DNA from: an uncultured Acidimicrobiaceae bacterium
GTDB taxonomy: Bacteria > Actinomycetota > Acidimicrobiia > Spongiisociales > UBA5794
Assembly (NCBI GenBank): GCA_964621095.1
Contig: CAZULI010000002.1
Location: 1-28,706, forward strand
Length of the DNA stretch: 28,706 nucleotides
Reading direction: 5' to 3'
Shown one piece after another: positions 6,413-25,920 of the stretch; the stretch's first letter is position 1; each line of letters starts with the position of its first letter. A program made the position numbers and the translations under genes. The notes under the pieces were generated by a model that was not told the DNA's origin, did no database searches, and saw only the letters and a list, made by a program, of their open reading frames with translations.

Positions 6413-7192
6413 ATGGGAACATCGGGGATGAGACACGAGAACAAGAAAGCGTTCATCACCGGTGCCGGATCCGGTATCGGACGCGAGACCGCGTTGCGTC
6501 TCTCCCGGGAGGGGGCGGGCGTACTTGTCACCGACATCAACGCCGACTCCGCAGCGGAGACCGCACGTATGATCGAAGCCGAGGGCGGGTCGGCACTCCA
6601 CGCACGGATGGATGTGCGTGACCGAGCTGAGATCCAAGCAGCGGTCGCCATGGCAGACGATGCCTGGGGTGCCCTGCATCTTCTTGTCAACAACGCCGGT
6701 CTTGTGACGAAGCACTCGCTTGCTGATCTGACCGAGGAAGCGTGGGACCTCGTTCTGGATGTGAATCTCAAGGGTCAGTTCCTGGTCGCCCAGGAGGTCT
6801 CCAAGCTCATCGCCCGATCGGGGGGTGGTGCCATCGTCAACCTCTCGACGGTAGAGGCACTCGTCGTCGTCACCAGTGGCACCACCGCCCAGCCGCACTA
6901 CAACGCGAGCAAGGGCGGGGTTCCCATGCTCACGAAGGCACTGGCGGTTGAGCTTGCAAGCGCAAACATCCGGGTCAACTGTGTTGCGCCGGGCCCCGTG
7001 GCGACCGATTTCTTTGATTATGAAGCGGTGACAAGTGACGAGGCCCTCGAAGCGATGAAACAGCGTCTCCTGGTGCCACGAGTCGGGTTGCCAAGCGACA
7101 TAGCAGCGGCGATCTCCTGGCTCCTGTCCGACGACGCCTCCTACGTCGACGGCATCCAACTGCCGGTTGATGGAGGGTGGACGACACGGTGA
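6413..7192 (+). CDS. Short-chain dehydrogenase/reductase (classical SDR)
   Basis: TGAGSGIG, NNAG, catalytic YNASK, RVNCVAPG, C-terminal VDGGW; AAGGAG RBS before ATG 6413. Confidence 0.95.
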   Translation: MGTSGMRHENKKAFITGAGSGIGRETALRLSREGAGVLVTDINADSAAETARMIEAEGGSALHARMDVRDRAEIQAAVAMADDAWGALHLLVNNAGLVTKHSLADLTEEAWDLVLDVNLKGQFLVAQEVSKLIARSGGGAIVNLSTVEALVVVTSGTTAQPHYNASKGGVPMLTKALAVELASANIRVNCVAPGPVATDFFDYEAVTSDEALEAMKQRLLVPRVGLPSDIAAAISWLLSDDASYVDGIQLPVDGGWTTR

Positions 7193-8559: not shown

Positions 8560-8563
8560 TCGG

Positions 8564-10021: not shown

Positions 10022-10039
10022 GGGTCGGTGTGCGCCCGG

Positions 10040-10079
10040 GTGTCCTGGTGCCACCGGTGGTTTCGGGCCACCAGGACAC
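10040..10079 (+). terminator. Inverted repeat after operon A (probable terminator)
   Basis: 11-bp perfect stem GTGTCCTGGTG (10040-10050) / CACCAGGACAC (10069-10079), about 20 nt after the ALDH stop and upstream of the next promoter. Confidence 0.6.
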
Positions 10080-10137
10080 GGGTTCAGGGCCGCGTTCATC
10101 GGGGGAGTGTGGAGGTCCAAGCAGCGTTCTGTGCCAG

Positions 10138-10172
10138 TTGCATCCCTTTTGTATGCCGTGTACTGTATACAA
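10138..10172 (+). promoter_or_regulatory. sigma70-type promoter of operon B with overlapping putative GntR operator 3
   Basis: TTGCAT (10138-10143)-N17-TACTGT (10161-10166). GCCGTGTACTGTATACAA (10155-10172) is 14/18 identical to operator 2, in the same register to the -10 box. Confidence 0.65.
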
Positions 10173-10199
10173 GATATCGGTGACAAGGAGGCAGGTGTC

Positions 10200-11144
10200 A
10201 TGTGTGGAATTGCTGGTCGCATCCTTGACAAGCCGGGGCCCGTGGGCGCAGATCTTGTCGAGCTGATGCAGGCCCAGCGGCATCGGGGGGCCGACTCCAC
10301 CGGGTTTGCGCTGTACGGCACACCGCTTGAGTCGGGGTACCGCGTCGGGATGTTCCTTGATGATCGGTCCCAGGCCCCGAACGTCATTGACCGGTTCGGG
10401 CAGATCATGAACCGCCATGGTGCTGACATCGTGGAGACGCCGACCCTCAACGACGCGGACACACGCCACGGCGCACTCCGGTTCACGGTGTCGGAACCCG
10501 ACAGCCCGATCGCCGATTGGACGGCTGAGTGCGACACGATCGGGGGTACTGAACTCCTCTCGGTTGGGCGCTCACTTGAGATCGTCAAGGACGACGGGGA
10601 TGCAGCACAGGTGGCGGATCGCCACGGTGTGCGTGATTTCGTGGGAACGCACGGGACAGGTCACGCCCGACTTGCCACGGAGTCGGTCGTCTCACCCATC
10701 GCAAGCCACCCGTTCTGGGCGAGGCCGTTCCCGGATGTGGCCATCGTGCACAACGGCCAACTCACCAACTACTTCCTGTGGAGGAGACGCCTCGAGCATC
10801 AGGGGTACCGCTTCAGCACCGAGAACGATTCCGAGCTGATCGCCGTGTGGCTCTCTGACCAGATGAATTCGGGGACAACGCTTGAGGAATCCCTTCGGGC
10901 AAGCATCACTGCGCTTGACGGTGTGTTCACGTTCCTTCTGTCAACGTTTGATCAGATCGGGATGGCAAAGGATCGTCTCGCCATCAAGCCCATCGTCGCC
11001 GTTGAGACCAACAGCGAGGCCGCAATGGCGACCGAGGAACAAGCGATCCGGCACTTGTACGGGGGTGAGGTCGAACCGATCAACTACGACGGTCCGGGGA
11101 TGGTCAAGGTATGGCCGGTCAGCACAGGAGTTGGGGTGTCATGA
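10200..11144 (+). CDS. mgsA: Class II (Ntn) glutamine amidotransferase, N-methylglutamate synthase subunit A / GlxB-like
   Basis: N-terminal MCGIAG (Cys1 nucleophile), GHARLATES, HPF, HNGQLTN, TENDSE; AAGGAG RBS; followed by GXGXG and FMN subunits. Confidence 0.85.
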   Translation: MCGIAGRILDKPGPVGADLVELMQAQRHRGADSTGFALYGTPLESGYRVGMFLDDRSQAPNVIDRFGQIMNRHGADIVETPTLNDADTRHGALRFTVSEPDSPIADWTAECDTIGGTELLSVGRSLEIVKDDGDAAQVADRHGVRDFVGTHGTGHARLATESVVSPIASHPFWARPFPDVAIVHNGQLTNYFLWRRRLEHQGYRFSTENDSELIAVWLSDQMNSGTTLEESLRASITALDGVFTFLLSTFDQIGMAKDRLAIKPIVAVETNSEAAMATEEQAIRHLYGGEVEPINYDGPGMVKVWPVSTGVGVS

Positions 11145-11836
11145 GTGAGATCTTGGAGATCGAAGTCGGAGATCGACCGCTACGAGAAGTCAACGCCGAG
11201 ATTCGCACGGCGGTGGAGGAGGGCCGGGACGTCGTGCTCCACGACACACGCTCCCGCCACAACCTCGCGGTCGGGCTTCCACCGGGTGGCTCGGTGACGA
11301 TCCCCGGTGGCGTTGGGTACTACTGCGGTGGGCTCAACACGGGATCACGTGTCGCCATCGGCCGGAACGCCGGTTGGGGGCTGGGCGAGGCGATGTCGGC
11401 AGGGGAGATCGTCGTGGATGGCTACGCCGGGTTGGGCGTTGGTGCATCGATGCTTGGTGGTCTTGTCCATGTGAAAGGGGACGCCGGACCGAGGGCTGGG
11501 GTCGCGATGAAGGGCGGGGACATCGTGGTGGAAGGGTCCGTGGGGTTTCTGAGCGGGTTCATGGCCCATGCAGGCCGCATCATCGTTCTTGGCGATACGG
11601 AGGACGCGGCCGGGGATTCGTTGTGGGGCGGATGCATGTGGGTGGCAGGAAACGTTCAGTCCCTCGGTGTGGACTCCAAGCTGGTCGATCCTGACGCTGA
11701 CGAGGTGGACTCCGTCGAGGCACTGTTGACCGGTCTCGGGGTTGGTGACAGCAGTCGCTCGTGGAAAAAGATCGTGTCCGGACAGAAGCTCTGGCATTTT
11801 GACGCAAGGGATGCACAAGCATGGCTGATGATTTGA
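11141..11836 (+). CDS. mgsB: GXGXG (GltB/FmdC beta-helix) protein, N-methylglutamate synthase subunit B / GlxC-like
   Basis: Repeating Gly motifs (GRNAGWGLGEAMSAG, GDAGPRAGVAMKGG); ATGA overlap with mgsA. Confidence 0.85.
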   Translation: MSEILEIEVGDRPLREVNAEIRTAVEEGRDVVLHDTRSRHNLAVGLPPGGSVTIPGGVGYYCGGLNTGSRVAIGRNAGWGLGEAMSAGEIVVDGYAGLGVGASMLGGLVHVKGDAGPRAGVAMKGGDIVVEGSVGFLSGFMAHAGRIIVLGDTEDAAGDSLWGGCMWVAGNVQSLGVDSKLVDPDADEVDSVEALLTGLGVGDSSRSWKKIVSGQKLWHFDARDAQAWLMI

Positions 11837-13218
11837 ACAACACCACAGAGAGTCCCGTGATGCTGGAGGACGGGTCGAGTTCCGATCGTCCGGTCGGAAG
11901 TGTCTCGTCGTACGACCGTGGCAAATCAAGCAAGTGGACCCCCGAGTCGATCTCTGAGATCCAGGCCACCGCACAACTGGGTCGGTACGCCATTCGAGGG
12001 TTCTCGACGTTCCACAAGAATCTCCCATCGTTGGATGATCTGACGTTTGTTCCTGCAACACTCACGAGACTCCCCCTTGAGGGGTATCGGGAGGATTGCG
12101 ATGCAACAACGGTGCTCGGTGATCGCCCGGGCCTTGTTGAAAAGCCGATCGAGCTCGCCATCCCCGTGTACATCGCTTCGATGTCGTTCGGGGCTCTGTC
12201 GGCCTCCGCCAAGGCGGCGCTTGGCAAGGGTGCCTCCAAGGTGGGCACCATGACGTGTACCGGTGAGGGTGGGATGCTTGCCGAAGAGCGTGAAGCATCC
12301 GAGACGCTGGTGTACCAGATGACACCGTCACGGTACGGGCTGGACCTCGATCACCTCCGGCGTGCCGACGCCATCGAGATCGCCGTTGGCCAGGGAGCCA
12401 AACCGGGGACCGGCGGCGTCCTCCTGGGGATGAAGGTCTCCGAGCGTGTGGCAAAGATGCGCACCCTCCCCATGGGTGTTGATCAGCGCTCCACGGTGCG
12501 TCACCCCGATTTTCTCGGAGCCGATGACCTCCAGGTGAAGATCGAGGAACTGCGTGAGGCGGTCAATTACAAGGTTCCGATCTTCATCAAGATGGGGGCG
12601 ACGCGTCCCCGCTACGACGTCGCCCTTGCAGCAAAAGCCGGCGCCGACGTCATCGTCCTCGACGGCATGGAGGGCGGAACCAACGCCGCCCCCGAGATTC
12701 TGCTCGACCACACCGGCGTGCCAACGATGGCGGCGATCCGGGCAGGCCGTGAAGCACTCGAGGACGCCGGACTCGCCGACGACGTCAAACTCGTTGCTGC
12801 CGGGGGGATCCGGTCCGGGATTGATGCTGCGAAGGCACTTGCGCTCGGTGCGGACGCCGTCATGATCGGAACCGCCGCGAACATCGCGCTCGGGTGCAAC
12901 GCGCCACGGTACGTGAAGGATTACGAAGCCATCGGAACATCCCCTGGTCAGTGTCACCACTGCCACACGGGTCTCTGCCCGGTCGGCATCCAGACCCAGG
13001 ATCCCGAACTCGAAAAGCGAATGGATGTCGACGCCGGCGCCGAGCGGGTTGCCCGGTTCCTCACGGCGATGACGATGGAGATCACCTTGATCGCCAAGGC
13101 CTGCGGCAAGTCGAGTGTCCACAACCTGGAGCCGGAGGACCTCAGGGCGTTGTCCCTTGAGGCATCGGCGTTCACGGGAGTGGCTCTGGCGGGGATCGAT
13201 CGTCCATACACGTGGTAG
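11821..13218 (+). CDS. mgsC: FMN-binding glutamate synthase family protein, N-methylglutamate synthase subunit C / GlxD-like
   Basis: MSFGALS, TGEGG, GQGAKPGTGG, DGMEGGT, AAGGIRSG, Fe-S cysteines CHHCHTGLCPVGIQTQDP. Confidence 0.88.
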   Translation: MADDLNNTTESPVMLEDGSSSDRPVGSVSSYDRGKSSKWTPESISEIQATAQLGRYAIRGFSTFHKNLPSLDDLTFVPATLTRLPLEGYREDCDATTVLGDRPGLVEKPIELAIPVYIASMSFGALSASAKAALGKGASKVGTMTCTGEGGMLAEEREASETLVYQMTPSRYGLDLDHLRRADAIEIAVGQGAKPGTGGVLLGMKVSERVAKMRTLPMGVDQRSTVRHPDFLGADDLQVKIEELREAVNYKVPIFIKMGATRPRYDVALAAKAGADVIVLDGMEGGTNAAPEILLDHTGVPTMAAIRAGREALEDAGLADDVKLVAAGGIRSGIDAAKALALGADAVMIGTAANIALGCNAPRYVKDYEAIGTSPGQCHHCHTGLCPVGIQTQDPELEKRMDVDAGAERVARFLTAMTMEITLIAKACGKSSVHNLEPEDLRALSLEASAFTGVALAGIDRPYTW

Positions 13219-13249
13219 CGGATCACAGGCAAATGAATGGAGGCCGTCC

Positions 13250-14539
13250 ATGACTGACAAACTTCTCCCCGGGACACACACGATCATTCTCGGCATTGGC
13301 GACCTGTGTGGAATCCTGCGAGGGAAGCATCTTCAGGCATCGATGTGGGAGAAGATCTCGGACCACGGCATCGCGATGGCGAGCGCCATCTTCGTCTTTG
13401 ACATGACGTGTGACATCTGGGACACCCCGTTCTCCAACATGGACAACGGGTACCCGGACCTGTTCGTCACCCCGATCCCGGGAACGCTGCGACCGGTGCC
13501 ATGGGCTGAGGGCACCATGCTCGCCTTCGGCGCTGCGACCCAGGAGAACGGCTCTCCCATACCGACCGATCCACGTCGTGCGCTCCAGAATGTGCTCGCA
13601 CGGTATGACGAGCTGGAGTATCAGGTCAAGGTCGGTGTGGAACTCGAGTTCTTCCTCCTTGACCCCGAGACCAAGGCACCCAGGGACACGGGTGTCCAGG
13701 TCTACGGCGTCGCCCGCGGTGCTCAGTTCGAACATGTCCTCGGGCCGATCCGAAACCAATGCACCGAGTTCGGTATCCCCATCGAGGTCTCCAACCCCGA
13801 GTACTCGAGCGGTCAGTTCGAGGTCAACATCCGTTACGGCGATGCGTTGACGTCGGTGGACAACGCGGTCCTGTTCCGTAGCGCGGTCAAACAAATCGCC
13901 GCCGAGCACGGACTTCTCGCCACGTTCATGGCCAAACCGTTCACCCACGAGTCAGGGAACGGGTTCCATATCCACCAGTCCCTCTGGCAGGGCGACCGAA
14001 ACGTCTTTGCCGATGGGCACCAGCTCTCTGAGCTCGGTCGGCACTACGTCGGAGGACTCCGCCAGCACATGGCGGAGTTCACGCTGTTCGGTGCCCCCAC
14101 CCCCAACAGTTTCAAGCGCCGCGCCCCCTACACGTTCTGTCCCATGAACAACTCCTGGGGAGGCGACAACCGGACCGTCGGTATACGGGCGGTGGAGGGG
14201 CGCCCGGATGCGGTCCGCGTCGAACAGCGTGACGCGAGCGCCGAAGCCAACCCGTATCTCGTGGTCGCAGGACAACTGGTCGCAGGACTGCATGGCATGG
14301 AGGAGAAGCTTGATCCGGGGCCACGAAACAACGGTGACGCCTACGCCGACACGGAGGCCCAACCGCTCCCGATGTCCATCCCGGAGGCGGTGACGGCGTT
14401 GCGTGGCTCCAAGCTTGCCGCAGAGGCGTTTGACCCTCAACTCATTGAGGTCCTGATCCAGATGGCTGAGCGGGAGGAGATGTTCCTGCGCACGAACGTC
14501 ACCGATTTTGAACGGGACCGATACTTGGAGGTGTATTGA
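13250..14539 (+). CDS. Second glutamine synthetase-like gamma-glutamylamide synthetase (GmaS-position gene)
   Basis: [53 protein letters not shown]; GGAGG RBS. Confidence 0.88.
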
Positions 14540-14838
14540 TGCGTATTGCTCGCGTGGTTGGCACGGCAACCGGGTCGGTCAAGGACCCACCGTTGACGGG
14601 CCAGACACTTCTCATCGTCGAGCCCGTGGATGCCCGTGGCGGGTCCATCGGGCCTCACGAGGTCGCCACCGACGCTGGAGTCGGCGCTGGGATCGGCGAC
14701 TGGGTTCTGATGGCGACGGGTTCGTCGGCGCGTCAACCCGGCTCGACACGGGGTGTGGCAACGGACGCTTCCGTTGTCCTCATTCTCGAGGAGCTCAAGT
14801 TGGGCGCCGAGACGACGTACCGCAGCGGTTTGCAATGA
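14539..14838 (+). CDS. BMC vertex pentamer protein (BMC-P, EutN/CcmL family)
   Basis: [15 protein letters not shown]...LLIVEP...[24 protein letters not shown]...DASVVLI is the EutN/CcmL pattern; TGATG coupling to the GS-like gene. Confidence 0.95.
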
Positions 14839-14912
14839 CCACACCAAAGAAAGCAACAAGACCCGCCGAGACGAAAAGTGATTCGATCCCGGCACAAGGA
14901 AAGGAAACGCGA

Positions 14913-15206
14913 ATGGCGGATCAGTCGAAAATGGCATTGGGCATGGTGGAAACGAAGGGGATGGCTGCAGCGACCGAAGCTGCGGACGCGATGCTCAAGG
15001 CCGCCAATGTGGAGCTCACCAGCTACGTGCAGGTTGGCGGAGGTCTCGTGACGGTGTTTATCCGGGGCGAGGTTGGTGCGGTCAAGGCGGCAACGGACGC
15101 AGGCGCCGTTGCGGCGAGCAAGATCGGTGATGTCCAGTCCGTCCACGTCATCGCCCGGCCCCATGACGAACTCCCGAACGTCATGTCCTACATCACCAGC
15201 GCCTGA
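14913..15206 (+). CDS. BMC shell hexamer (BMC-H, EutM/PduA/CcmK family)
   Basis: [22 protein letters not shown]...[23 protein letters not shown]...VHVIARPH. An alternative in-frame ATG at 14835 would add 26 aa. Confidence 0.96.
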
Positions 15207-15246
15207 GCACATGATCTCGTTCCGCCCACCCGTGGGAGGCGTCTGA

Positions 15247-16632
15247 GTGGACGCCGACCTGCGAAGCATCGCTCACGCCCGGGATTGTGCCGAACGCGCC
15301 AGCGTCGCGTTCGGTCAATTTCGTGGTGCCTCGCAGGAGGCCATTGACCGGATCGTTGAGGCAATGGCACGGGCAGCGGTCAGGGAGGCGGGGAGGCTTG
15401 GCGCCCTGGCAGCCGAAGAGACGGGGTACGGCAACGCCGAGGACAAGCGGATGAAGAACATCTACAACGCCCTGGGCGTTGCGGAGTGGCTTCGCAACGT
15501 GCGCACCGTCGGCGTGCTCTGGAAGGATGAGCGCACCAAGGTGATGGCGATCGGTGAGCCCATGGGGATCATCGCGGCGCTGATTCCGGTGACCAACCCG
15601 ACAGCGACGGTGATCTTCAAGGCGCTGAGTGCCGTCAAGGCAGGGAACGCGATCATCTGTGCCCCGCACCCGCGGGGTGTTCGCTCCGGGGTGGAGACGA
15701 CAGCGGTCCTTGCGGCTGCTGCCACCGAGGCGGGCGCGCCGCCCAACCTGGTTCAGTGTCTGAGCGAGGTCACCCTTGAAGCCACCTCCGAGTTGATGCG
15801 ACATCGCAAGACCTCGCTGGTGATGGCGACCGGTGGTGCTGACATGGTGCGGGCCGCGTACTCCTGTGGAAAGCCGACCCTCGCGGTTGGACCGGGGAAC
15901 GTGCCGGTGTACGTGGATGCGTCCAAACGTCACGAGCTTGAGGAGGTTGCCGAACAGATCCTCACCTCAAAGGCGTTCGACAACGGCACGGCGTGTGTGG
16001 CCGAACAAGCCGTGGTTGCCCACCGTGAGATCGCCCGTCCGCTTCGGGATGCGTTCAGAGCCAAAGGTGCGTATTTCTGCACCCCGTCCCAGGCCGAAGC
16101 CCTTGCCAAGGTGATGTTCAACGAACGAGGTGGACAGATCCCCACCCGAGTGGCGCAATCAGCCGCCAGGCTTGCCGAGTTGGCGGGGTTTGATGTGCCG
16201 ATGCGCACGCGGGTGCTCGTGGCTGACGCGTCAGAGGTGGGGAGAAACACTCCGCTCTCGCGGGAGAAACTCAACCCTGTGCTTGCGTTCTACGAGGTGG
16301 GATCGGTGGATGAGGGGTACCGCCTCTGTGAGGCGGTCCTGAACTTTGGTGGCCTCGGTCACAGTGCTGCGGTCCACACCGATGACGCCACGGTCAAGGC
16401 GCAGTTCTCCATGCTGCCGGTCGGCAGGCTGTTGATCAACACCCCGTGTGCGCTCGGTGGCATGGGGTACTCGACCGATCTCGAGCCAAGCTTCATGCTC
16501 GGTACCGGGACCTGGTCCGGATCGATTGTGTCTGACAACGTGACGGCGCTTCACTTGATCAACATCAAGCGGATCGCCGAAGAGACGCGGCCGTGGCGGA
16601 GTTTTGGTGAAATTGAAAGGACAATTCGATGA
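15247..16632 (+). CDS. CoA-acylating aldehyde dehydrogenase (EutE/PduP/AdhE-N family)
   Basis: PVTNPTAT, ATGGADMVRAAYSCGKP, VGPGNVP, catalytic SKAFDNGTACVAEQ, REKLNPVL, SFMLGTG; GGGAGG RBS. Confidence 0.93.
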   Translation: MDADLRSIAHARDCAERASVAFGQFRGASQEAIDRIVEAMARAAVREAGRLGALAAEETGYGNAEDKRMKNIYNALGVAEWLRNVRTVGVLWKDERTKVMAIGEPMGIIAALIPVTNPTATVIFKALSAVKAGNAIICAPHPRGVRSGVETTAVLAAAATEAGAPPNLVQCLSEVTLEATSELMRHRKTSLVMATGGADMVRAAYSCGKPTLAVGPGNVPVYVDASKRHELEEVAEQILTSKAFDNGTACVAEQAVVAHREIARPLRDAFRAKGAYFCTPSQAEALAKVMFNERGGQIPTRVAQSAARLAELAGFDVPMRTRVLVADASEVGRNTPLSREKLNPVLAFYEVGSVDEGYRLCEAVLNFGGLGHSAAVHTDDATVKAQFSMLPVGRLLINTPCALGGMGYSTDLEPSFMLGTGTWSGSIVSDNVTALHLINIKRIAEETRPWRSFGEIERTIR

Positions 16633-17255
16633 CAGGATCCAGGACCGATATCCGGGCGCTGATGCAGATCGATCGGTTGCAGCCCCGGTTTGCGGCGTAC
16701 AGCGCGGCAACCGTGCGAGGCTCCATCCCCCTTGAGGGCGACACCTTGCTCGTTGGTGAGATCGCCCCTGGGAACGCCGTGTTCCAGATCGTCGACATCG
16801 CGCTGAAGGCCGCTGAGATCGAGTCGGTGTCCCAGATCGTGGAACGCGAGTTCGGGTTCTTCATGCTCCGGTCGCCGGTCAACACCTCGATCTCGATCGC
16901 CCGTGACGCGATCCTGGAGTATCTCGGCGCAGAGATGTCGGATCGGATGAAACCGAAGGTCGAAAGCACACAACGCATCACGTCGGTGGAACCCCATCAG
17001 GCCAAGCTGCTCAACATCTGGCGGCAGGGGTCACTCGTCATCCCCGGAAGCACCCTCGGGATGCTTGAGTGTTCACCCGCTGCCTACATCACGATCGCCG
17101 CCAATGAGGCAGAGAAGGCGGCAGACGTCGACATCGTCGAAGTCAGGGCGTTGGGTCGGTTCGGACGAATGTTCATCGCAGGAACCCAGGACAGTGTCAG
17201 CACAGCCCTTGATGCTGCCACGGCCGCCATCGAAGGGACGGATGGCCGTTCATGA
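16629..17255 (+). CDS. BMC trimer shell protein (BMC-T, CcmP-like double-stacking type)
   Basis: IDRLQPRFAAY...GEIAPG...DIALKA...VEREFG and second domain SPAAYITIAANEAEKAADV...GRFGRMFIAG resemble CcmP / Haliangium BMC-T; ATGA overlap with the AldDH. Confidence 0.9.
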   Translation: MTGSRTDIRALMQIDRLQPRFAAYSAATVRGSIPLEGDTLLVGEIAPGNAVFQIVDIALKAAEIESVSQIVEREFGFFMLRSPVNTSISIARDAILEYLGAEMSDRMKPKVESTQRITSVEPHQAKLLNIWRQGSLVIPGSTLGMLECSPAAYITIAANEAEKAADVDIVEVRALGRFGRMFIAGTQDSVSTALDAATAAIEGTDGRS

Positions 17256-18424
17256 ACGTCATTGGAGAACACGATGTGAGGGCAGCAGCGGCCCGCAGCG
17301 ACGTGATCGTCGTTGGTCCGAACGATCTCCTGACACCCAACGCTCGGGATCTGGTCGCCCAGCTCGGACTGCGGATCGTTGCCCAACCGGTTGAAGCCGT
17401 CTCCACCAACGCCCCCGATCACGCGACCGCAGTGAGGCGTGTTCTGTTGCGCCGATCCCCGAAGTGGATTGCTCCCCAAGCGAAGGGTTCCACCACCGAG
17501 AGACCGTTTGAGCGGATCGCGATGGTCGGTTGCGGCGCGGTGGGCGCCGCAACCGCACACCTTGCGGCTGCCCGCCAGGCCGCCAAGAGCCTCGCACTCA
17601 TCGATCTCGTGCCAGGTCTCGCTTCAAGCACGGCTCTTGACATCGAACACGCCTCCGGCATCACGGGTTCCCCCACCACGTGCGTCGGTGGGGAGACAAT
17701 GGATCTCATCGCGGACGCCGATGTCGTGGTGGTGACCGCCGGCAAGCCACGGTCCCCTGGGATGCCACGGGCCGATCTGCGCGACATCAACGCCAAGGTG
17801 ATCGGGGGAGTCGCGGCAGCCGTCCAGGAGTACGCGCCCAACGCGGTCCTCATCGTGGTGACGAACCCGCTCGATGAGATGACGTACGAAGCGTTCCGGT
17901 CCACCGACCTCCCACGCGAACGAGTCCTTGGTATGGCAGGGACCCTCGATTCAAGCCGGTTCCGCTGGGCGTTGGCGACCGAAGCCAAGGTGCACCCGCG
18001 TGATGTGTCAGCGTTCACCCTTGGGAGTCACGGGGATGAGATGGTGCCGATTCTCTCCCTTGCAACCATCAAGGGTCGCCCGGTGACTGAGGTTCTCCCC
18101 AAGGACGCGATTGAACGGTGCGTCCAGGAGACCGTCCATGGGGGCGGCCGCGTCGTTGCCCTACGGCGGACCGGATCGGCGTCGATTGCACCTGCCCACT
18201 CCATCGTTGAGATTCTCGACGCCATGCGCGGTGTGATACCGGGACCCATTCCCGTGTCGGTCGTCCTGCAGGGTGAGTACGGCATCAAGGATGTTGTGGT
18301 GGGTGTTCCCGTTCAACTCGGGATGGGTGGTTTGGAGCGGATCGTGGAGATGCCGCTCAGTGAGGCTGAGCTCAAGATGCTCCGGGAAGCGGCAAGCGTC
18401 GTGAAGGGGCGAATGGTCCAATGA
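17252..18424 (+). CDS. mdh: Malate dehydrogenase (LDH/MDH superfamily) with ~87-aa N-terminal extension
   Basis: GCGAVG, LID, TAGKPRSPGMPRADL (Arg at the MDH specificity position), VTNPLD, GMAGTLDSSRF, GSHGD; extra N-terminal domain containing LLTPNARD. Confidence 0.85.
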   Translation: MNVIGEHDVRAAAARSDVIVVGPNDLLTPNARDLVAQLGLRIVAQPVEAVSTNAPDHATAVRRVLLRRSPKWIAPQAKGSTTERPFERIAMVGCGAVGAATAHLAAARQAAKSLALIDLVPGLASSTALDIEHASGITGSPTTCVGGETMDLIADADVVVVTAGKPRSPGMPRADLRDINAKVIGGVAAAVQEYAPNAVLIVVTNPLDEMTYEAFRSTDLPRERVLGMAGTLDSSRFRWALATEAKVHPRDVSAFTLGSHGDEMVPILSLATIKGRPVTEVLPKDAIERCVQETVHGGGRVVALRRTGSASIAPAHSIVEILDAMRGVIPGPIPVSVVLQGEYGIKDVVVGVPVQLGMGGLERIVEMPLSEAELKMLREAASVVKGRMVQ

Positions 18425-18443
18425 GGGTTCTTGGAGGTGATCG

Positions 18444-19760
18444 ATGAACAACGAAGAAATGCTTTCCGAAATACTCGATGAGCTGAAGAGTTGGAGGGAG
18501 AAGGAGGACGGCTCCCCCCGCATGAGCCAAGCTGAGGCGAAGGCGACGTATCAGGCCGGGTTCGAACGTGCCGTGGATCCCTCACGGCGGGCCCACAAGG
18601 CTGGCAGTCTCAAGGTCACCATCCTCGGCGGTGGCAACGGCGGCATGGCCATGGCTGGCCACATGGCGATTCTTGGCTACGAGATCACCATGTGGTCCCC
18701 GTTCTCGTGGGAGCTTGAACCGATCGAGGAGAAGGGGGGAGTCTCGATCATCGGTTCAGAAGTCTCCGGATTCGGCAAGGTGGCAAAAGTCACCCCCAGC
18801 ATTGATCTGGCGGTCAAAGGCGCCGATCTGATCATGATCATCGCCCCAGCAATGGCACACAAGACGTACGCCTCGATGCTGGCGCCGTTGCTGCGTGACG
18901 GTCAGGTCGTGGTGCTCAACCCGGGACGTACCGGCGGCTCGTTGGAGTTCGCCCGGACCCTCACACGAAACGCGTGTTCAGCGCGGATCGTCCTCGGTGA
19001 GACCCAGACGTTCATTTACGCCGCTGAACGCAAGGATGCGTACACCGTCGAGATCCTCAAGGAGAAGTTCCGGATGCGGGCTGCAGCGCTTCCGGCAGCG
19101 GACAACGATCTTCTGATGGATCCGTTGCGTGATCTGTATCCACAGATCGAACCTGCCCAGAACGTCCTGGAGACCGGACTCAACAATGTAGCACCCGTCG
19201 TGCACCCCGGCACGGTGCTCCTGAACACCTCGGTGCTTGAGCGCACGGCGGCAGGCGAGCCGCTCAAGTTCTACCAGGATCAGGTGACGCCGACGATCGC
19301 CACTCTCATCATGGGAAAGCTTGACCAGGAGAAGCAGAACGTTGCCAAAGCCCTCGGCCTCAAGGAGGTCTGGTCGCTGCTTGACTGGTACCGGGAGAGC
19401 TACCACATCGTGGGTGACTCGATCTTTGAGGTCATCCGAGCCAACCCGTACATTGCGGGGTTCACCGCTCCAAGCAACATCCTGGCCCAGAACCACGTCC
19501 TCGACGATGTTCCCAACTCACTGGTCCCGATCTCAGATTTCGGCAAGGTGCTCGGCGTGGCCACACCAACCATCGACTCGATCGTCCACCTCGCAAGCGC
19601 CATGTGTTCGATTGATTGGTGGGAGGAGGGCAGAACGGTGAGCGGTCTCGGGTTGGGTGGCATGTCCATTGACCACATGATCGAGCACGTTGAACGCACG
19701 GCTCTCGGCGGGAAGTGCTCGGAGTCCGGTGTGTGCCGTGCCTTCGGGTTCTACAAGTAG
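18444..19760 (+). CDS. NAD/NADP opine (octopine/nopaline) dehydrogenase family protein with ~55-aa N-terminal extension
   Basis: ILGGGNGG, LNPGRTGG, ETQTFIYA, LNNVAPVVHPG, DWYRESY, DDVPNSLVP, GVATPTIDSIVHLAS; GGAGG RBS. Confidence 0.87.
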   Translation: MNNEEMLSEILDELKSWREKEDGSPRMSQAEAKATYQAGFERAVDPSRRAHKAGSLKVTILGGGNGGMAMAGHMAILGYEITMWSPFSWELEPIEEKGGVSIIGSEVSGFGKVAKVTPSIDLAVKGADLIMIIAPAMAHKTYASMLAPLLRDGQVVVLNPGRTGGSLEFARTLTRNACSARIVLGETQTFIYAAERKDAYTVEILKEKFRMRAAALPAADNDLLMDPLRDLYPQIEPAQNVLETGLNNVAPVVHPGTVLLNTSVLERTAAGEPLKFYQDQVTPTIATLIMGKLDQEKQNVAKALGLKEVWSLLDWYRESYHIVGDSIFEVIRANPYIAGFTAPSNILAQNHVLDDVPNSLVPISDFGKVLGVATPTIDSIVHLASAMCSIDWWEEGRTVSGLGLGGMSIDHMIEHVERTALGGKCSESGVCRAFGFYK

Positions 19761-19763
19761 GGG

Positions 19764-20108
19764 ATGGCCGTGATGCAAGAGTTCTCGGGTCGACCCGTCA
19801 TCTCGGGGGAGCAGATCGAAGCAGCCGCCGAGATGGGACGTTCAGAACTGGTGATCCCTGCTGGCGCCCTCATCACGCCGCTGGCACACGAGCGGGCAGC
19901 CGCGTTGGGCATCTCTCTCAGCTCAAGCGTTGCTCCCGATCGTCACGCCGGCCACGCCGCCAGAAGAGCAGCGACGCAGGCCAAGGCGAGAGAGATCGTG
20001 GCGCGGGTGGTGGCCGCCCGGGGTGGTGACCCATCGATGGTCGATGACATGGTCAAGACCGTGATGGAGCGCATGTCGAGTAGCTGCAAGTGTGGCGATC
20101 ACCGGTAG
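19764..20108 (+). CDS. Small BMC-associated hypothetical protein (ITPxA module plus C-terminal amphipathic helix)
   Basis: Starts 3 nt after the opine DH stop. N-terminal VISGEQIEAAA...ALITPLAHERAAALGISL; C-terminal MVDDMVKTVMERM. Confidence 0.8.
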   Translation: MAVMQEFSGRPVISGEQIEAAAEMGRSELVIPAGALITPLAHERAAALGISLSSSVAPDRHAGHAARRAATQAKAREIVARVVAARGGDPSMVDDMVKTVMERMSSSCKCGDHR

Positions 20109-20199: not shown

Positions 20200-20460
20200 C
20201 TAGTAGCGCGGGCGGCGCTCCTGGCGTTCCTGTGCTTCGTTCACACGGAGGTTGCGTCCGTCCATGTCCTCGCCGTCAAGTTCCTGCATCGCCTTGCGGG
20301 CAAGATCGTCTGACATCTCCACAAACGCAAAACCGCGTGAGCGGCCCGTTTCGCGGTCGGTGATCAGGGCAACGGAGTCAACCGTACCGATCGCCTCAAA
20401 CCTCGTGCGCACTGATTCTTCAGTTGCACTCCATGGGAGGTTTCCCACGTATAGTCTCAT
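20200..20460 (-). CDS. RNA-binding protein (single RRM domain)
   Basis: RNP2 LYVGNL, RNP1 RGFAFVEM, DRETGRS, GRNLRVNEA; ATG 20460 with GGAG upstream (86 aa). Confidence 0.93.
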   Translation of the reverse strand: MRLYVGNLPWSATEESVRTRFEAIGTVDSVALITDRETGRSRGFAFVEMSDDLARKAMQELDGEDMDGRNLRVNEAQERQERRPRY

Positions 20461-20770
20461 TCTTCCGGCTCCATTTCGATGGAAAGCCCACGGCCGCTGT
20501 CTCTGCACTCCGTCGGAACTCGACTCAAGCTGAAAAATCGGGCTGGGGTTGCTAACGGGTGTGAGATTAGCCCATCGCACGTCAAGACGCACACTTCTTG
20601 TGGCGCGTTTCACCCTGATTTTCATGGCGTGTTGCGGGGGTTCATCGTTGGGTGATGGCCCGCGAATGGCCAACCAGCACGGAGCCGTCAGCGGTGCAAG
20701 CACCTGGCGAAGCGCTGCTCGTGAAGCCAACGGGACGCGTCGTGGTCACCGATGCTGCAGCCGCTGTTGG

Positions 20771-22102
20771 CTACCTTCGAACGAACCGCTGTGCCTTGAG
20801 CTCGAAGCGGGGGAGTGACCCGAGGGCGACGATCTCGATGTCTGGGCGGAGGCCCACCGCAGCTTCGAAACGGGCTCGGACTGCAGCCGTCATGGCACGG
20901 CCATCGACGCCGTCCTGGCATTCCAACTCGATCAGCAGTTCTGCCATTTCGCGCTGGGTTGTCACCGTGACGCGAAACTCCTCGATCCCATCGTGGGCAC
21001 GCAACATGTTCTCGACTGCCGCTGGGAAGATGTTGACGCCACGCACCACGATCATGTCGTCAGCCCGGCCGATCACGCCACCATCGAACCGTGTGAACGT
21101 ACGGCCACACGGGCACGGATCGGTGGTGACCCGCACGACATCCCCGGTGCGGTACCGGAAGACGGGGAACCCGATCCTGCCGAGATTGGTGATGACGAGC
21201 TCTCCCTCCCCGCCGGGTTCCACGGGTGATCCGGTTGCAGGATCAAGCACTTCAACAATGAACTCACTGTCGATGGCGTGGGTCCCGCCGGGCTGGGCTT
21301 CACACTCGAAACTGTGCGCGCCGACTTCGGATGCTCCGGCATGGTCATAGCACTTGGCGCCCCACACCGACTCGATGCGCTGTTTGGTCGCTGGCACATT
21401 CGCCCCCGGTTCACCCGCGTGGACCGTGAGCCGCATCGGGATCGTGCTCAGGTCAAACCCATCCTCCCTGGCAACCTCGGCGAGCCGTAGGGCGTAGGTG
21501 GGGGTGCAGGTCATGGCGGTCACCCCCATCTCGGCCATGAGTCCGAGACGCTGGGACGAGGTACGACCGCCCCCTGGCACCATCAGGGCACCGATGTTTT
21601 GAGCTCCGCCGACGGCGGCCCAGAACCCGATGAACGGGCCAAACGAGAACGGAACGAAGAGGCGGTCCTTCGACGTCAATCCTGCACCGGCGAGCACGAA
21701 CCCCCAGCACCGCTCCCACCAGGCCCAGCTCTCGACGGTATCGAACACCCGCAGGGGGCTGCCCGTCGTGCCGGAGGTCTGGTGGACCCGTGTGTACGCG
21801 CTCTCGGGAAATGTGCAGTTGGTGTTGGTCTCGCTCTCGGCCTGTCCTTCCATGAGCTCGGCCTTCGTGGTGAGCGGTAGCTGTGAGAGATCAGCGAGGG
21901 TGCGGATGTCACGAGGGGCGGCTCCCACCGCATCAAACTTCTTGGTCACGAACCGGTTGCTGCCGTAGGTGGCGTCCACAACCACGGCCAACTTTGACTC
22001 CTGGAGGGCGCGGAGTTGCTCCGGTTCCAGCGTCTCGGTTTCCTGGTCAAAAAAGGTGGTCCCCACAGCCACAGTGTGCTCGTTTTGGGGGTCGCTTCGC
22101 AA
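20771..22102 (-). CDS. Phenylacetate-CoA ligase family protein (PaaK-like aryl-CoA ligase)
   Basis: P-loop HQTSGTTG, YDHAGASE, FRYRTGD, GRADDMIVVRGVNIFP. True start may be GTG 22072 or 22066. Confidence 0.88.
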   Translation of the reverse strand: MRSDPQNEHTVAVGTTFFDQETETLEPEQLRALQESKLAVVVDATYGSNRFVTKKFDAVGAAPRDIRTLADLSQLPLTTKAELMEGQAESETNTNCTFPESAYTRVHQTSGTTGSPLRVFDTVESWAWWERCWGFVLAGAGLTSKDRLFVPFSFGPFIGFWAAVGGAQNIGALMVPGGGRTSSQRLGLMAEMGVTAMTCTPTYALRLAEVAREDGFDLSTIPMRLTVHAGEPGANVPATKQRIESVWGAKCYDHAGASEVGAHSFECEAQPGGTHAIDSEFIVEVLDPATGSPVEPGGEGELVITNLGRIGFPVFRYRTGDVVRVTTDPCPCGRTFTRFDGGVIGRADDMIVVRGVNIFPAAVENMLRAHDGIEEFRVTVTTQREMAELLIELECQDGVDGRAMTAAVRARFEAAVGLRPDIEIVALGSLPRFELKAQRFVRR

Positions 22103-22123
22103 CCCGATTGCGGCACGGGCGAC

Positions 22124-22152
22124 CTGCCGGCAGCAGAATCAGACGCTATCGT
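22124..22152 (+). promoter_or_regulatory. Putative promoter giving a (near-)leaderless boxC transcript
   Basis: CTGCCG (22124-22129)-N17-TATCGT (22147-22152); GTG start 8 nt downstream with no SD sequence. Confidence 0.45.
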
Positions 22153-22160
22153 GACCATAC

Positions 22161-23804
22161 GTGATTGAGTTCCAGACACACCCCGACCAGTACCGGCATT
22201 GGCGCCTGGGGGTTGACGGCCGCGTCGCAACCCTCGACATGGATGTGGACCCCGATGGTGGGCTTCACGACGGGTACACCCTCAAACTCAACTCGTACGA
22301 TCTCGGCGTCGACATCGAACTCGCTGACGCCATCCAACGGCTCCGGTTCGAGCATCCCGAGGTTGGTGCGGTGGTGATCGGATCGGCGATGGACCGGGTG
22401 TTCTGTGCTGGTGCCAACATTCCGATGCTTGCCGGTGCCCCGCACCCGCTCAAGGTCAACTTCTGCAAGTTCACCAACGAGACCCGCAACGGGATCGAGG
22501 AGGCATCCGCGGAGTCTGGGCAGCGCTACATCGCGGCAATCAACGGCACGGCTGCTGGTGGCGGGTACGAACTTGCCCTTGCCACGGATCACATCATGTT
22601 GATCGATGATGGGTCCGCTTCAGTGGCTCTGCCGGAAGTGCCGCTCCTGGGGGTACTGCCGGGTACGGGTGGGTTGACGCGTCTTGTCGACAAACGGTTC
22701 GTGCGCCGTGATCGTGCCGACGTCTTCTGCACCGTTGAGGAGGGGATCAAGGGCACGAAAGCGGTGGAGTGGAACCTCATTGATGAACTGGTCCCCGGAT
22801 CCCGGTTTGATGAGATCGTCCACGAGCGCGCCGTGGAGTTCGCAGATGCGAGCCCGCGACCTGCCGAGGGACCAGGGGTGATCCTGACACCGCTCGATCG
22901 CACGATCAGCGAGAACGCACTGACGTACTCGTCGGTATCGGTGTCCATTGACCGCATGGCACGCTCTGCGGAGTTCATCATTGCAGGGCCATCAGATGGC
23001 GCTCCACCCGACGGGGACGGTGCCCGATCACTCGGGGCGGCATGGTGGGCGCTGCGGGTGGCTCGTGAACTCGACGACGCCATTTTGCACCTGCGAGTCA
23101 ACGAACTCGAGATCGGGACCTGGGTCATCCGTACCGAGGGTGACCTGGCGTTGGTGCTTGACCACGACCGCTTCCTCCATGAGTACGCCAGCCACTGGTT
23201 CGTCCACGAGGTGATGCTGTACTGGCGACGAATCCTCAAGCGCATCGATGTCTCATCTCGTTCGATCGTTGCCCTCATCGAACCCGGGTCCTGTTTCGGC
23301 GGGGTCCTGTTCGAGTTGGTACTCGCTGCCGACCGGGCGTATATGTTCCTTGGCGAGGACGACGACGGAGAGACTGCCCGGGTTGCGGTGACCGCGTCAA
23401 GCACCGGACCTCTCACCATGAGCAACGGGTTGACCCGCATCGCCACGCGCTTTTGGGGTGACGACGACGCACGACAGAGCGCGGAAGCGACGGTCGGCTT
23501 GACCCTTGATGCTGAGGAGGCCACGGAGGCGGGTCTCGTCACCGAGATCTTCGACGACATCGATTGGGAGGATGAACTTCGCCTGATTCTTGAGGAGCGG
23601 ACCTCGTTCAGCCCCGACAGTCTCACTGCCATGGAGGCGAACCTGCGGTTCCCTGGACCTGAGACGTTGGAGACCAAGATCTTCGGCAGACTGACCGCAT
23701 GGCAGAACTGGGTGTTCCAGCGTCCGAACGCATCGGGAGAAGTCGGTGCGCTTGGACGGTACGGAACCGGGCTGCGTCCTGAGTATGACAAGAGGAGGGT
23801 GTAG
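22161..23804 (+). CDS. boxC: 2,3-epoxybenzoyl-CoA dihydrolase (benzoyl-CoA-dihydrodiol lyase)
   Basis: KLNSYDLGVDIELADAIQRLRFEHPEV, KVNFCKFTNETRN, PEVPLLGVLPGTGGLTR, ETKIFGRLTAWQNWVFQRPNA. Confidence 0.95.
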   Translation: MIEFQTHPDQYRHWRLGVDGRVATLDMDVDPDGGLHDGYTLKLNSYDLGVDIELADAIQRLRFEHPEVGAVVIGSAMDRVFCAGANIPMLAGAPHPLKVNFCKFTNETRNGIEEASAESGQRYIAAINGTAAGGGYELALATDHIMLIDDGSASVALPEVPLLGVLPGTGGLTRLVDKRFVRRDRADVFCTVEEGIKGTKAVEWNLIDELVPGSRFDEIVHERAVEFADASPRPAEGPGVILTPLDRTISENALTYSSVSVSIDRMARSAEFIIAGPSDGAPPDGDGARSLGAAWWALRVARELDDAILHLRVNELEIGTWVIRTEGDLALVLDHDRFLHEYASHWFVHEVMLYWRRILKRIDVSSRSIVALIEPGSCFGGVLFELVLAADRAYMFLGEDDDGETARVAVTASSTGPLTMSNGLTRIATRFWGDDDARQSAEATVGLTLDAEEATEAGLVTEIFDDIDWEDELRLILEERTSFSPDSLTAMEANLRFPGPETLETKIFGRLTAWQNWVFQRPNASGEVGALGRYGTGLRPEYDKRRV

Positions 23805-23806
23805 GC

Positions 23807-25249
23807 ATGGGCACCGACAAAGTGGATTACGACGCATTGATTCCCAACAACGTGGGGCTGGCAGACGACCCGAAACTCCAGCGAGCCCTGGAGGAGTGGC
23901 ACCCTGGATACATCGACTGGTGGATGACGATGGGACCGGACGGGTTCCAGATGGCCGATGTCTACCTGCGGACCGCCATCAGCGTGGAGAAACAGGGTTG
24001 GGCCAAGTTCGACTACGTCAAGATGCCCGAGTACCGCTGGGGCATCCTGCTCGCCCCCGCCGTGGAGGGTCGCACCATCCCGTGCGGGGAACATGTCGGT
24101 GAGTCTGCCTGGCAGGAGGTCCCGGGGGAGTACCGGTCGATGTTGCGACGGTTGATCGTCATCCAAGGGGACACCGAACCCGCCTCGGTCGAACAACAAC
24201 GGTTCCTTGGTTCAACGGCGCCATCACTCTATGACCTGCGAAACCTCTTCCAGGTCAACGTCGAGGAGGGCCGCCACCTCTGGGCGATGGTGTATCTCCT
24301 CCAGAAGTACTTTGGCAAGGCCGGCCGCGAGGAGGCACAGGACCTGCTGCTCCGCCAGTCGGGGAGTGATGCCCGTCCGCGGATGCTCGGAGCGTTCAAC
24401 GAGGAAACCCCCGACTGGTTGTCGTTCTTCATGTTCACCTATTTCACCGACCGGGACGGCAAGATGCAGCTCGAAGCTCTCGCGCAGTCGGGCTTTGATC
24501 CTCTCTCGCGCACCTGTCGCTTCATGCTTGCGGAAGAGGCCCACCACATGTTTGTCGGCTACACCGGAGTCAACCGGGTCGTTGAAGCGACCGTTGATGC
24601 GATGGATGCCGCAGGGATCTCGGATCCGTACGATCTTGAGGCAGTCCGGGCGCTCGGCGTGATCGATCTGCCAACGATCCAGCGCAAGATGAATCTTCAC
24701 TTCTCCCTGACCCTGGACCTCTTCGGCTCCGAGGAGTCCACCAATGCAGCGAACTTCTTCAACGCAGGGCTCAAGGGCCGGTACCACGAGTCGAGTCTTG
24801 ATGATGACCACCGGTTGACCAACGACACGTACCCGGTCATGAAACTCGTCGATGGGCGTCTCCAACCCGTTGAGGTCCCGGCACTCCTGGCGCTCAACGC
24901 CCGACTGCGGGACGACTTCATCGATGATTGCCAGGGTGGCGTCACCCGTTGGAACCGGGTCATCGCCGGCAAGGGGATCGAGTTCGAGCTTCGACTCCCT
25001 CACGCTGCGTTCAACCGATCCGTCGGGGAGTTCGAGGACCTTCACGTCTCCCCTGATGGGAAGCTGCTGACACCCGAGGAGTGGGAGCGTCAGGTTGGTG
25101 ACTGGTTGCCCACGGATGGTGATCGAGAACATATCGAGAGCTTGATGAAGCCCGAACTCGAACCAGCCAAGTTCGCCAGTTGGATCGCACCCCCCACCAG
25201 GGGGATCCAGAACATGCCGGAGGACTTCCTCTACGTCAAGCTGCCCTGA
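23807..25249 (+). CDS. boxB: Benzoyl-CoA 2,3-epoxidase subunit B (diiron)
   Basis: VIQGDTEPASVEQQR, VNVEEGRHLWAM, FTDRDGKMQL, EEAHHMFVG, LDLFGSE; adjacent to boxC. Confidence 0.95.
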   Translation: MGTDKVDYDALIPNNVGLADDPKLQRALEEWHPGYIDWWMTMGPDGFQMADVYLRTAISVEKQGWAKFDYVKMPEYRWGILLAPAVEGRTIPCGEHVGESAWQEVPGEYRSMLRRLIVIQGDTEPASVEQQRFLGSTAPSLYDLRNLFQVNVEEGRHLWAMVYLLQKYFGKAGREEAQDLLLRQSGSDARPRMLGAFNEETPDWLSFFMFTYFTDRDGKMQLEALAQSGFDPLSRTCRFMLAEEAHHMFVGYTGVNRVVEATVDAMDAAGISDPYDLEAVRALGVIDLPTIQRKMNLHFSLTLDLFGSEESTNAANFFNAGLKGRYHESSLDDDHRLTNDTYPVMKLVDGRLQPVEVPALLALNARLRDDFIDDCQGGVTRWNRVIAGKGIEFELRLPHAAFNRSVGEFEDLHVSPDGKLLTPEEWERQVGDWLPTDGDREHIESLMKPELEPAKFASWIAPPTRGIQNMPEDFLYVKLP

Positions 25250-25461
25250 CCAGGTGCCGGTTGGGCATCGGGTCCCGTGGAGAAGGTCATCTCAGCCGCC
25301 GGTCGCTGCACCCCGGACCTCGACGGTCGGGATGGTGCCGTGGCTGGCAGCGGGAGTCTGGTCGGTAAACTGTGGTGTTGACCATTGTCGATCACTCCGC
25401 TGTCACCTTGGTGAGTAGCTCTGATGACCGAGCAGTACCCCAGTCGAAGGGAATACATCAC

Positions 25462-25920
25462 ATGCGTATCGATTTTCGATCAGCGCTTCCATCAGCTCTG
25501 ACGGCCATGATGGGTCTCCAGAAAGTTGTCAACTCCAGCGCTCTTGAACCAGAACTCCTTGAGTTGGTGAAGATCCGGGCATCACAGATCAACGGCTGTG
25601 GGCACTGCCTTGACATGCACACCAAGGATGCTGAGGCGATGGGGATGGCGTCTCACCGTCTGCACCTCGTGGCGGCATGGGACGAAGCTCCGTACTACTC
25701 GGATCGGGAGCGGGCAGCCCTGGAGTGGTGTGAGGTTCTCACGCTCATCGCTGACCATGGTGTCCCGGATGAGGTGTATGAAGAGGTGGCGGCTGTCTTT
25801 TCCGAGGAGGAGATCGTGGCCCTCACGTTTGCGGTCATAGCGATCAACAGCTGGAACCGTCTCAATGTGGCGTTTCAGTCCTCCGTGGGCGACTACGTCG
25901 CGGGGAGCTACGGCCACTAG
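25462..25920 (+). CDS. Carboxymuconolactone decarboxylase / AhpD-like family protein
   Basis: ELVKIRASQINGCGHCLDMH (CxxC), YSDRERAALEW, INSWNRL; start placed at ATG 25462. Confidence 0.9.
   Translation: MRIDFRSALPSALTAMMGLQKVVNSSALEPELLELVKIRASQINGCGHCLDMHTKDAEAMGMASHRLHLVAAWDEAPYYSDRERAALEWCEVLTLIADHGVPDEVYEEVAAVFSEEEIVALTFAVIAINSWNRLNVAFQSSVGDYVAGSYGH

Follow-up and report, generated by a model that had tools for sequence, protein, structure and literature searches.

The locus described here raises the question of what reduces a benzoyl-CoA epoxidase where its usual reductase, BoxA, is missing, and of what is done by the ligase gene beside it. It lies on a stretch of 28,706 nucleotides (the window: the whole DNA that was analysed), which is an entire contig (CAZULI010000002.1, here C2) of assembly GCA_964621095.1, a metagenome-assembled genome (MAG) of 1.69 Mb in 245 contigs that is 82.9% complete. 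In an original prediction, made from the letters of the window, it was supposed that the organism is probably an actinobacterium. This was correct, and the class is Acidimicrobiia, the name that BoxB homologues of 77–92% identity carry at NCBI; metagenomes containing near-identical DNA come from activated sludge and wastewater in several studies. The canonical Box cluster of Azoarcus/Aromatoleum evansii and Burkholderiales consists of bclA, boxR, boxC, boxB, boxA and boxD. Here we find only boxC and boxB, with a divergent gene for a ligase of the PaaK fold next to them, and the question of the reductant is made harder because no candidate donor is encoded in cis. The explanation that we favour, with somewhat better than even confidence, is that the locus is the O2-dependent branch of a benzoyl-CoA hub, the ligase activating 4-hydroxybenzoate and the electron donor of BoxB being encoded outside the cluster.

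The listing of open reading frames (ORFs) and family scans confirmed all three genes, as well as the gap between ligase and boxC, which measures 58 bp with the longer ligase ORF and 88 bp with the shorter. boxC (22161–23804, forward strand) encodes 2,3-epoxybenzoyl-CoA dihydrolase, a ring-cleaving enzyme of the crotonase family, and matches TIGR03222 at full length (2–547) with 870.5 bits, the cut-off being 712.3. It is followed after 2 nt by boxB (23807–25249, forward strand), for the diiron oxygenase component of benzoyl-CoA 2,3-epoxidase; the protein scores 847.4 bits against TIGR03225 (cut-off 499.1), with residues 6–479 falling on model positions 1–471. The match of BoxB to Azoarcus BoxB (PDB 3PER) has an E value of 1e-194, and the stretches GDTEP, NVEEGRH, FTDRDGK and EEAHH, in which the diiron ligands lie, are kept; the same four are invariant in an alignment (A1) of six diverse BoxB sequences. 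Overall dN/dS is 0.03–0.10 for boxB, 0.05–0.17 for boxC and 0.06–0.12 for the ligase gene, and inside the window's genus it is 0.03–0.04, 0.05–0.09 and 0.07–0.12, respectively, the values for the genus being rough with synonymous sites near saturation. BoxB and BoxC belong fully to their respective families, and strong purifying selection acts on both.

Compared with the canonical system of Azoarcus and Burkholderiales (for which Mycetohabitans rhizoxinica pBRH01, locus L038, serves as the example), BoxB is 61–68% and BoxC 56% identical, and the length of BoxB, the diiron motifs, the order boxC-boxB and the tight spacing are shared. Unlike that system, the one here lacks BoxA (an NADPH-dependent Fe-S flavoprotein reductase), an aldehyde dehydrogenase of the BoxD type and an XRE-type BoxR; no BclA was found in the genome, and the divergent neighbour is the PaaK-fold ligase rather than a regulator or bclA.

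The absence of boxA, boxD, boxR and a BclA-type ligase gene from the window had been pointed out in the original prediction, and a search of the whole genome extends it. The BoxA model TIGR03224, which detects the Mycetohabitans protein (the positive control) at 682 bits, has no match in the assembly at E ≤ 1e-3. BoxD (NF008868) reaches at most 115 bits (cut-off 444) and benzoate-CoA ligase (TIGR02262) at most 142.7 (cut-off 375); a tblastn search with Mycetohabitans BoxR returned only a weak, partial match of 123 residues on contig C98. Since the genome is incomplete and absence cannot be proved from it alone, 201 Acidimicrobiia genomes were sampled. BoxB is over the cut-off in 14 of them, and 13 of these are 95–100% complete. 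BoxA reaches its cut-off in none of the 201 (top score 44.7 bits), and BoxD does so in a single genome, one without BoxB. Five further BoxB-positive Actinomycetota genomes, from two other families, also lack BoxA, and a Nonomuraea record with boxB and boxC has no boxA inside 10 kb. With 13 near-complete BoxB-positive relatives devoid of BoxA and BoxD, there is therefore no assembly gap to blame: the lack of BoxA and BoxD, to which BoxR may be added, is a trait of the Acidimicrobiia lineage. A synteny survey found boxC adjoining boxB in all 13 relatives. In some of them a TetR-family gene stands next to boxC in place of BoxR; in Nonomuraea gerenzanensis boxB and boxC are separated by a PaaX-like regulator gene (L039:11422–12267) on the opposite strand.

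For bclA the picture changes. Nine of the 13 relatives, both same-genus genomes (G038 and G142) included, encode a ligase of the BclA family (537 bits) in the box locus, mostly together with a Liv-type ABC transporter. On C2 the PaaK-fold ligase gene runs directly into other genes where the relatives have the transporter and bclA, and orthologues of bclA, the binding protein and the hydrolase were not found elsewhere in the assembly. Either bclA has been lost from this genome or it was not assembled.

A box cluster without boxA, which the original prediction had read as a variant in a probable actinobacterium, is not peculiar to actinobacteria. We collected 80 boxB loci, mostly alphaproteobacterial, by a pattern scan with one genome per species (BoxB 68–73% identical to the window's; BoxA status taken from tblastn). 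boxA lies inside 10 kb in only 31 of them, where it is directly 3' of boxB. Five genomes with no boxA next to boxB were searched in full (two cultured Bradyrhizobium, a Roseicyclus, a Gemmatimonas MAG and Sedimenticola hydrogenitrophicus), and none gave a BoxA over the cut-off. In the BoxB tree the BoxA-less sequences make up entire large, stable clades; one holds all the Acidimicrobiia and another a large group of Bradyrhizobium, Pseudolabrys and Xanthobacteraceae, with further cases scattered among Rhodobacterales. In BoxA-less Bradyrhizobium, Pseudolabrys and some Rhodobacterales, as here, the boxC-boxB pair is conserved and BoxA is missing genome-wide. Such clusters have been met before: boxBC was reported in UBA5794 Acidimicrobiia (PMC12008989) and a BCL-BoxB-BoxC set in SAR324 (PMC4782131), in each case without comment on BoxA, and a comparative study treats box clusters lacking BoxA as incomplete (PMC10803450). 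The BoxA-less box cluster is real, widespread and already noticed, and it is no actinobacterial peculiarity. Two loci deserve separate mention. BoxB of L099, on a contig labelled as a Kiloniellales MAG, falls inside the Acidimicrobiia clade, perhaps through mis-binning or recent transfer. A Rhizobiales MAG (L048:2217–3600) has a gene for a distant PaaK-like ligase, 30% identical to that of the window, directly upstream of boxB; no boxC was seen on its 5.2-kb contig.

Since BoxA is missing throughout the lineage, in the 14 BoxB-positive Acidimicrobiia as in the five other Actinomycetota, BoxB must draw on another electron donor, which is what had originally been supposed. Clustering of the ORFs of 13 Acidimicrobiia loci showed no conserved reductase family, and a six-frame scan for the cysteine motifs of small ferredoxins, covering these loci, the window and the contigs with Hcr and Bcr genes, gave spurious antisense matches only. 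Flavodoxin (PF00258) had no match in the window's genome or in four BoxB-positive relatives, and the small ORFs 3' of the Bcr-like genes of G038 matched no Pfam or NCBIfam family. Six BoxA-less loci of the Pseudolabrys/Xanthobacteraceae type (L045, L050, L052, L053, L059 and L066; for example L053:6179–7207 and L059:5870–6280) have, immediately upstream of boxR-boxC-boxB, genes for a thioredoxin-reductase-like flavoprotein (Pyr_redox_2) and for a 2Fe-2S ferredoxin, and this pair occurs in no BoxA-positive locus. This is good circumstantial evidence that another two-component donor can stand in for BoxA in such loci. In contrast to these, the Acidimicrobiia loci have no such candidate in cis. 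A candidate for them is PaaE, the reductase of phenylacetyl-CoA oxygenase, a system related to that of BoxB. It is present in 12 of the 13 BoxB-positive relatives. Of 35 genomes sampled from the three families with the ligase, 34 have it, so that it is near-universal there with or without BoxB.

The ligase gene is on the reverse strand and extends from 20771 to 22102 (TTG start) or 22072 (GTG start). The GTG, giving 433 aa, is probably the true start because a 98%-identical homologue (P0121) has the matching length. The protein combines AMP-binding (PF00501) and AMP-binding_C_2 (PF14535) domains and is of the PaaK-type fold by Pfam. It shares the short adenylate-forming fold of Burkholderia cenocepacia PaaK1 and PaaK2 (2Y27 and 2Y4O), the Bacteroides thetaiotaomicron protein 4R1L and 2-hydroxyisobutyryl-CoA synthetase (6HDW); it scores 172–206 bits to solved PaaK-type proteins and aligns at full length with 4R1L and 2Y27. 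Against the PaaK equivalog models it nevertheless stays below both cut-offs, with 234.1 bits for TIGR02155 (cut-off 646.3) and 272.6 for NF041878 (cut-off 700). Two tandem PaaK paralogues on contig C22 of the same genome reach 465 and 458 bits, twice the score of the window ligase, and are thus the better candidates for the phenylacetate role. The window ligase is a third, divergent paralogue whose partners are Hcr and box genes and not paaABCDE. It has many homologues, 64–98% identical, in MAGs of Acidimicrobiia and Anaerolineae, where the public name is phenylacetate-CoA ligase. Searches of the PDB and the literature gave no characterised member of this subfamily and no PaaK-type 4-hydroxybenzoate ligase (hcrL, hbcL); papers in which the enzymes are named provided no connection to a sequence.

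What the ligase may act on is suggested by the company that its orthologues keep. Eight orthologue loci (65–75% identity to the window ligase) were read. In five of them (L127, L128, L138, L139 and L140) the gene is directly beside a trio of Fer2, MoCo-binding and FAD_binding_5 proteins, and three of the eight also contain Bcr-type genes. In two, L129 and L140, it adjoins PPDK_N/PEP-utilizers (PpsAB-like) and UbiD-like genes of the phenylphosphate synthase/carboxylase type. The product of phenylphosphate synthase and carboxylase is 4-hydroxybenzoate. Locus L141 has the Acidimicrobiia layout, boxB-boxC followed by bclA, ligase and ABC transporter, and in L021 and L022, from the window's own family, the ligase, bclA, boxC, boxB and the molybdenum trio are all in one cluster, the best family matches of the trio being the three subunits of 4-hydroxybenzoyl-CoA reductase. 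Ligase orthologues (E ≤ 1e-120) occur in nine of the 201 Acidimicrobiia genomes, and these are exactly the genomes in which BoxB occurs together with an HcrA-like protein scoring 800 bits or more; the ligase is missing from five that have BoxB without the Hcr-like enzyme and from three that have the Hcr-like enzyme without BoxB. Because these genomes are related, the match is to be read as a pattern rather than as statistical evidence. The association with box and Hcr genes holds across four genera. It is most likely, judging from gene context and co-occurrence, that the ligase makes 4-hydroxybenzoyl-CoA, which an Hcr-type enzyme would convert to benzoyl-CoA for BoxB. What is new, and specific to this locus, is that box genes are coupled to a ligase of the PaaK fold whose substrate is probably 4-hydroxybenzoate.

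A candidate for the required reductase is encoded in the genome. Contig C17 (L136; 1947–5899 and 7036–8097, including the Oah gene) carries an HcrCAB-type trio with a large subunit of 856 bits. Its three subunits are in the order of those of Thauera aromatica HcrCAB (1RM6), and the medium subunit aligns with Thauera HcrB (1RM6_B) through the four-cysteine loop of the extra 4Fe-4S cluster. The enzyme differs from Thauera Hcr in being coupled, by co-occurrence, to the aerobic BoxBC as well as to a Bcr-like reductase. The BcrC-, BcrB-, BcrA- and BcrD-like subunits are divided between the end of contig C1 (29689–30498) and contig C104 (28–3184), and Oah, encoded beside the Hcr genes, scores 569 bits (cut-off 464); it is found in six of the 14 BoxB-positive Acidimicrobiia. 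In G038 the Bcr-like, Hcr-type and Oah genes lie together inside 12 kb (L143). Taken as sequence matches, the genes on C1, C104 and C17 would give this Acidimicrobiia MAG an anaerobic route for benzoyl-CoA. Like Azoarcus and Thauera, the genome then holds an anaerobic and an aerobic route, known here from the genes, and the word ‘streamlined’, which the original prediction had used for the box locus, is misleading. Two routes of this kind would suit a habitat that alternates between oxic and anoxic. About ten proteobacterial loci without BoxA (the L044–L059 group, for example L050:14160–16499) also have genes of Hcr-type molybdenum enzymes next to boxCB, as do L021 and L022, which suggests that 4-hydroxybenzoyl-CoA reduction and the Box branch are recurrently linked.

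The scheme that we favour would operate as follows. The ligase would convert 4-hydroxybenzoate, or a close hydroxy-aromatic acid, to the CoA ester, from which the molybdenum enzyme encoded on C17 would strip the hydroxyl group to give benzoyl-CoA. With O2, BoxB would form the epoxide and BoxC would open the ring; the semialdehyde product would be oxidised by an aldehyde dehydrogenase other than the BoxD type. The gene for the donor of BoxB's two electrons would lie outside the cluster, the candidates being PaaE and a housekeeping pair of ferredoxin and reductase. When oxygen is lacking, benzoyl-CoA from this pool could pass instead to the Bcr-like reductase and Oah. The wider proposal of an oxygen-flexible hub, undescribed in Actinomycetota, in which ligase and Hcr feed either a class-I-like Bcr and Oah or BoxB and BoxC with a borrowed donor (PaaE or housekeeping ferredoxin), is one that we hold more tentatively, its chances being a little short of even.

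Several observations tell against this scheme. The Hcr-like large subunit, at 856 bits, is below the equivalog cut-off of 995, so its substrate could differ, and the Hcr genes are on a separate contig from the box locus. Known Hcr enzymes are oxygen-sensitive and need a low-potential ferredoxin, which is a poor fit to a strictly aerobic route. The assignment of the ligase's substrate comes from context and from the co-occurrence of genes in genomes that are not independent. In L127 the ligase gene is flanked on its other side by a paa-type cluster. As BclA is lacking from the window's assembly, the ligase might there also need to take benzoate. PaaE is out as a universal donor of BoxB, being absent from three BoxB-positive, BoxA-less genomes (G009, the Gemmatimonas MAG and Sedimenticola). 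It was not found in the window's own assembly either, in which PaaA is on a 6-kb contig (C109) that stops short of the expected position of paaE.

The original prediction had pointed to another possible role for the ligase, that of the organism's benzoate-CoA ligase, substituting for BclA and feeding BoxB directly. It is the sole aryl-CoA ligase encoded beside boxCB in this genome, no ligase of the TIGR02262 class was found in the assembly, and the place of transporter and bclA is taken on C2 by an unrelated operon. The two same-genus relatives, however, retain bclA side by side with this ligase in one locus, so that the two are not interchangeable there; in other phyla the orthologues track Hcr-type genes and not box genes; and the five Acidimicrobiia with BoxB but no Hcr do without the ligase. 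With a genome that is merely 83% complete, an unassembled bclA also has to be reckoned with, and that this gene alone is hidden by an assembly gap is possible, if on the doubtful side. We therefore regard a benzoate ligase as unlikely. Thus the observation from which the original prediction started was confirmed, and of its interpretation the alternative donor and the lineage stood, but not the specificity of the ligase, which context and profile tie to Hcr. It is very unlikely that the ligase is instead an ordinary phenylacetate-CoA ligase with an incidental boxCB neighbourhood. The best family matches are indeed PaaK models, the homologues bear that public name, PaaA is encoded in the genome and paa genes adjoin the orthologue in L127; yet the scores are about one-third of the PaaK cut-offs and half those of the tandem paralogues, the link to box and Hcr genes is kept across four genera, and PaaE, presumably a marker of the Paa pathway, is in 34 of 35 genomes of the three families, against nine of 201 for the ligase.

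The two remaining explanations concern the box genes themselves. If canonical boxA, boxD and bclA were all in the 17% of the genome that is unassembled, the pathway would be the textbook one. The fragmentation into 245 contigs and the cut of C109 before the expected paaE show that genes can be missed in this assembly, but the 13 relatives of 95–100% completeness, two of them from the same genus, likewise have no BoxA or BoxD, and at the place directly after boxB where canonical boxA would be, genes of the AhpD family and SulP follow on an unbroken contig. We give this reading almost no credence. Hardly greater is the chance that the boxCB pair, lacking BoxA, is a remnant in decay or put to another use and has lost benzoyl-CoA epoxidation, as the treatment of such clusters as incomplete in the literature (PMC10803450) might lead one to think. 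The frames are intact, all the diiron-ligand motifs are present, dN/dS is 0.03–0.17 across the two genes, the BoxA-less clades are large and old, and the locus is represented in contigs from RNA libraries.

If the wider proposal of an oxygen-flexible hub with a borrowed donor is right, many bacteria would be able to epoxidise benzoyl-CoA without BoxA, and box clusters called ‘incomplete’ would be functional. BoxA-less clusters are kept under strong selection in Acidimicrobiia, other Actinomycetota, Bradyrhizobium and its relatives, Gemmatimonas and Sedimenticola. Pathway predictors and the comparative study cited above score them as incomplete, and surveys of sludge, soil and the sea are therefore likely to under-count the aerobic degradation of benzoyl-CoA. 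There would also be a testable substrate for a large and misnamed subfamily of ‘phenylacetate-CoA ligases’, which seems to mark the degradation of 4-hydroxybenzoate and phenol in Chloroflexota and Actinomycetota.

The divergent promoter region between ligase and boxC (22073–22160 with the GTG start of the ligase) contains a TANNNT hexamer, TATCGT, at 22147–22152, 8 nt before the boxC GTG; both the start codon and the position of the hexamer are kept in the same-genus locus L016. No Shine–Dalgarno motif precedes boxC, and a scan for the sigma-70 consensus around its start returned nothing. The sequence is consistent with the leaderless boxC envisaged originally. Contigs assembled from RNA libraries of three studies cover ligase, boxC and boxB, although carry-over of DNA into such libraries is possible. 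Breaks in these contigs fall between 22056 and 22174 in three of the four runs, and one run has a contig that bridges the gap; the breaks are a weak hint of divergent transcription with little or no leader. On the 3' side of boxB a scan for intrinsic terminators found nothing, and the fold of this region is marginally stable (z –2.0).

Downstream of boxB, the AhpD/carboxymuconolactone-decarboxylase-family gene (25372–25920, forward strand) is found at this position in this genome only. Same-genus relatives have an alpha/beta hydrolase gene there, which may be compared with the hydrolase of the Mycetohabitans box cluster. Upstream of the ligase are the gene of an RRM-domain RNA-binding protein (20200–20730, reverse strand) and an unrelated operon. 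The RRM gene is on what is by far the deepest contig of one RNA library, at about 180x against 3–9x for the box genes; its ORF as listed is probably too long at the 5' end because the RRM domain spans residues 93–162. Family scans of 7177–20108 gave genes for a glutamine-synthetase-like ligase, an aldehyde dehydrogenase, MgsABC-like proteins, and malate/lactate-dehydrogenase-like and opine-dehydrogenase-like enzymes. Finally, in two other Acidimicrobiia (L011:4403–5797 and L012:3429–4826) the box genes are adjoined by a gene for a LigM-type vanillate/3-O-methylgallate O-demethylase (711 bits, over the cut-off), which links lignin-derived methoxy-aromatics with the box locus in those organisms.

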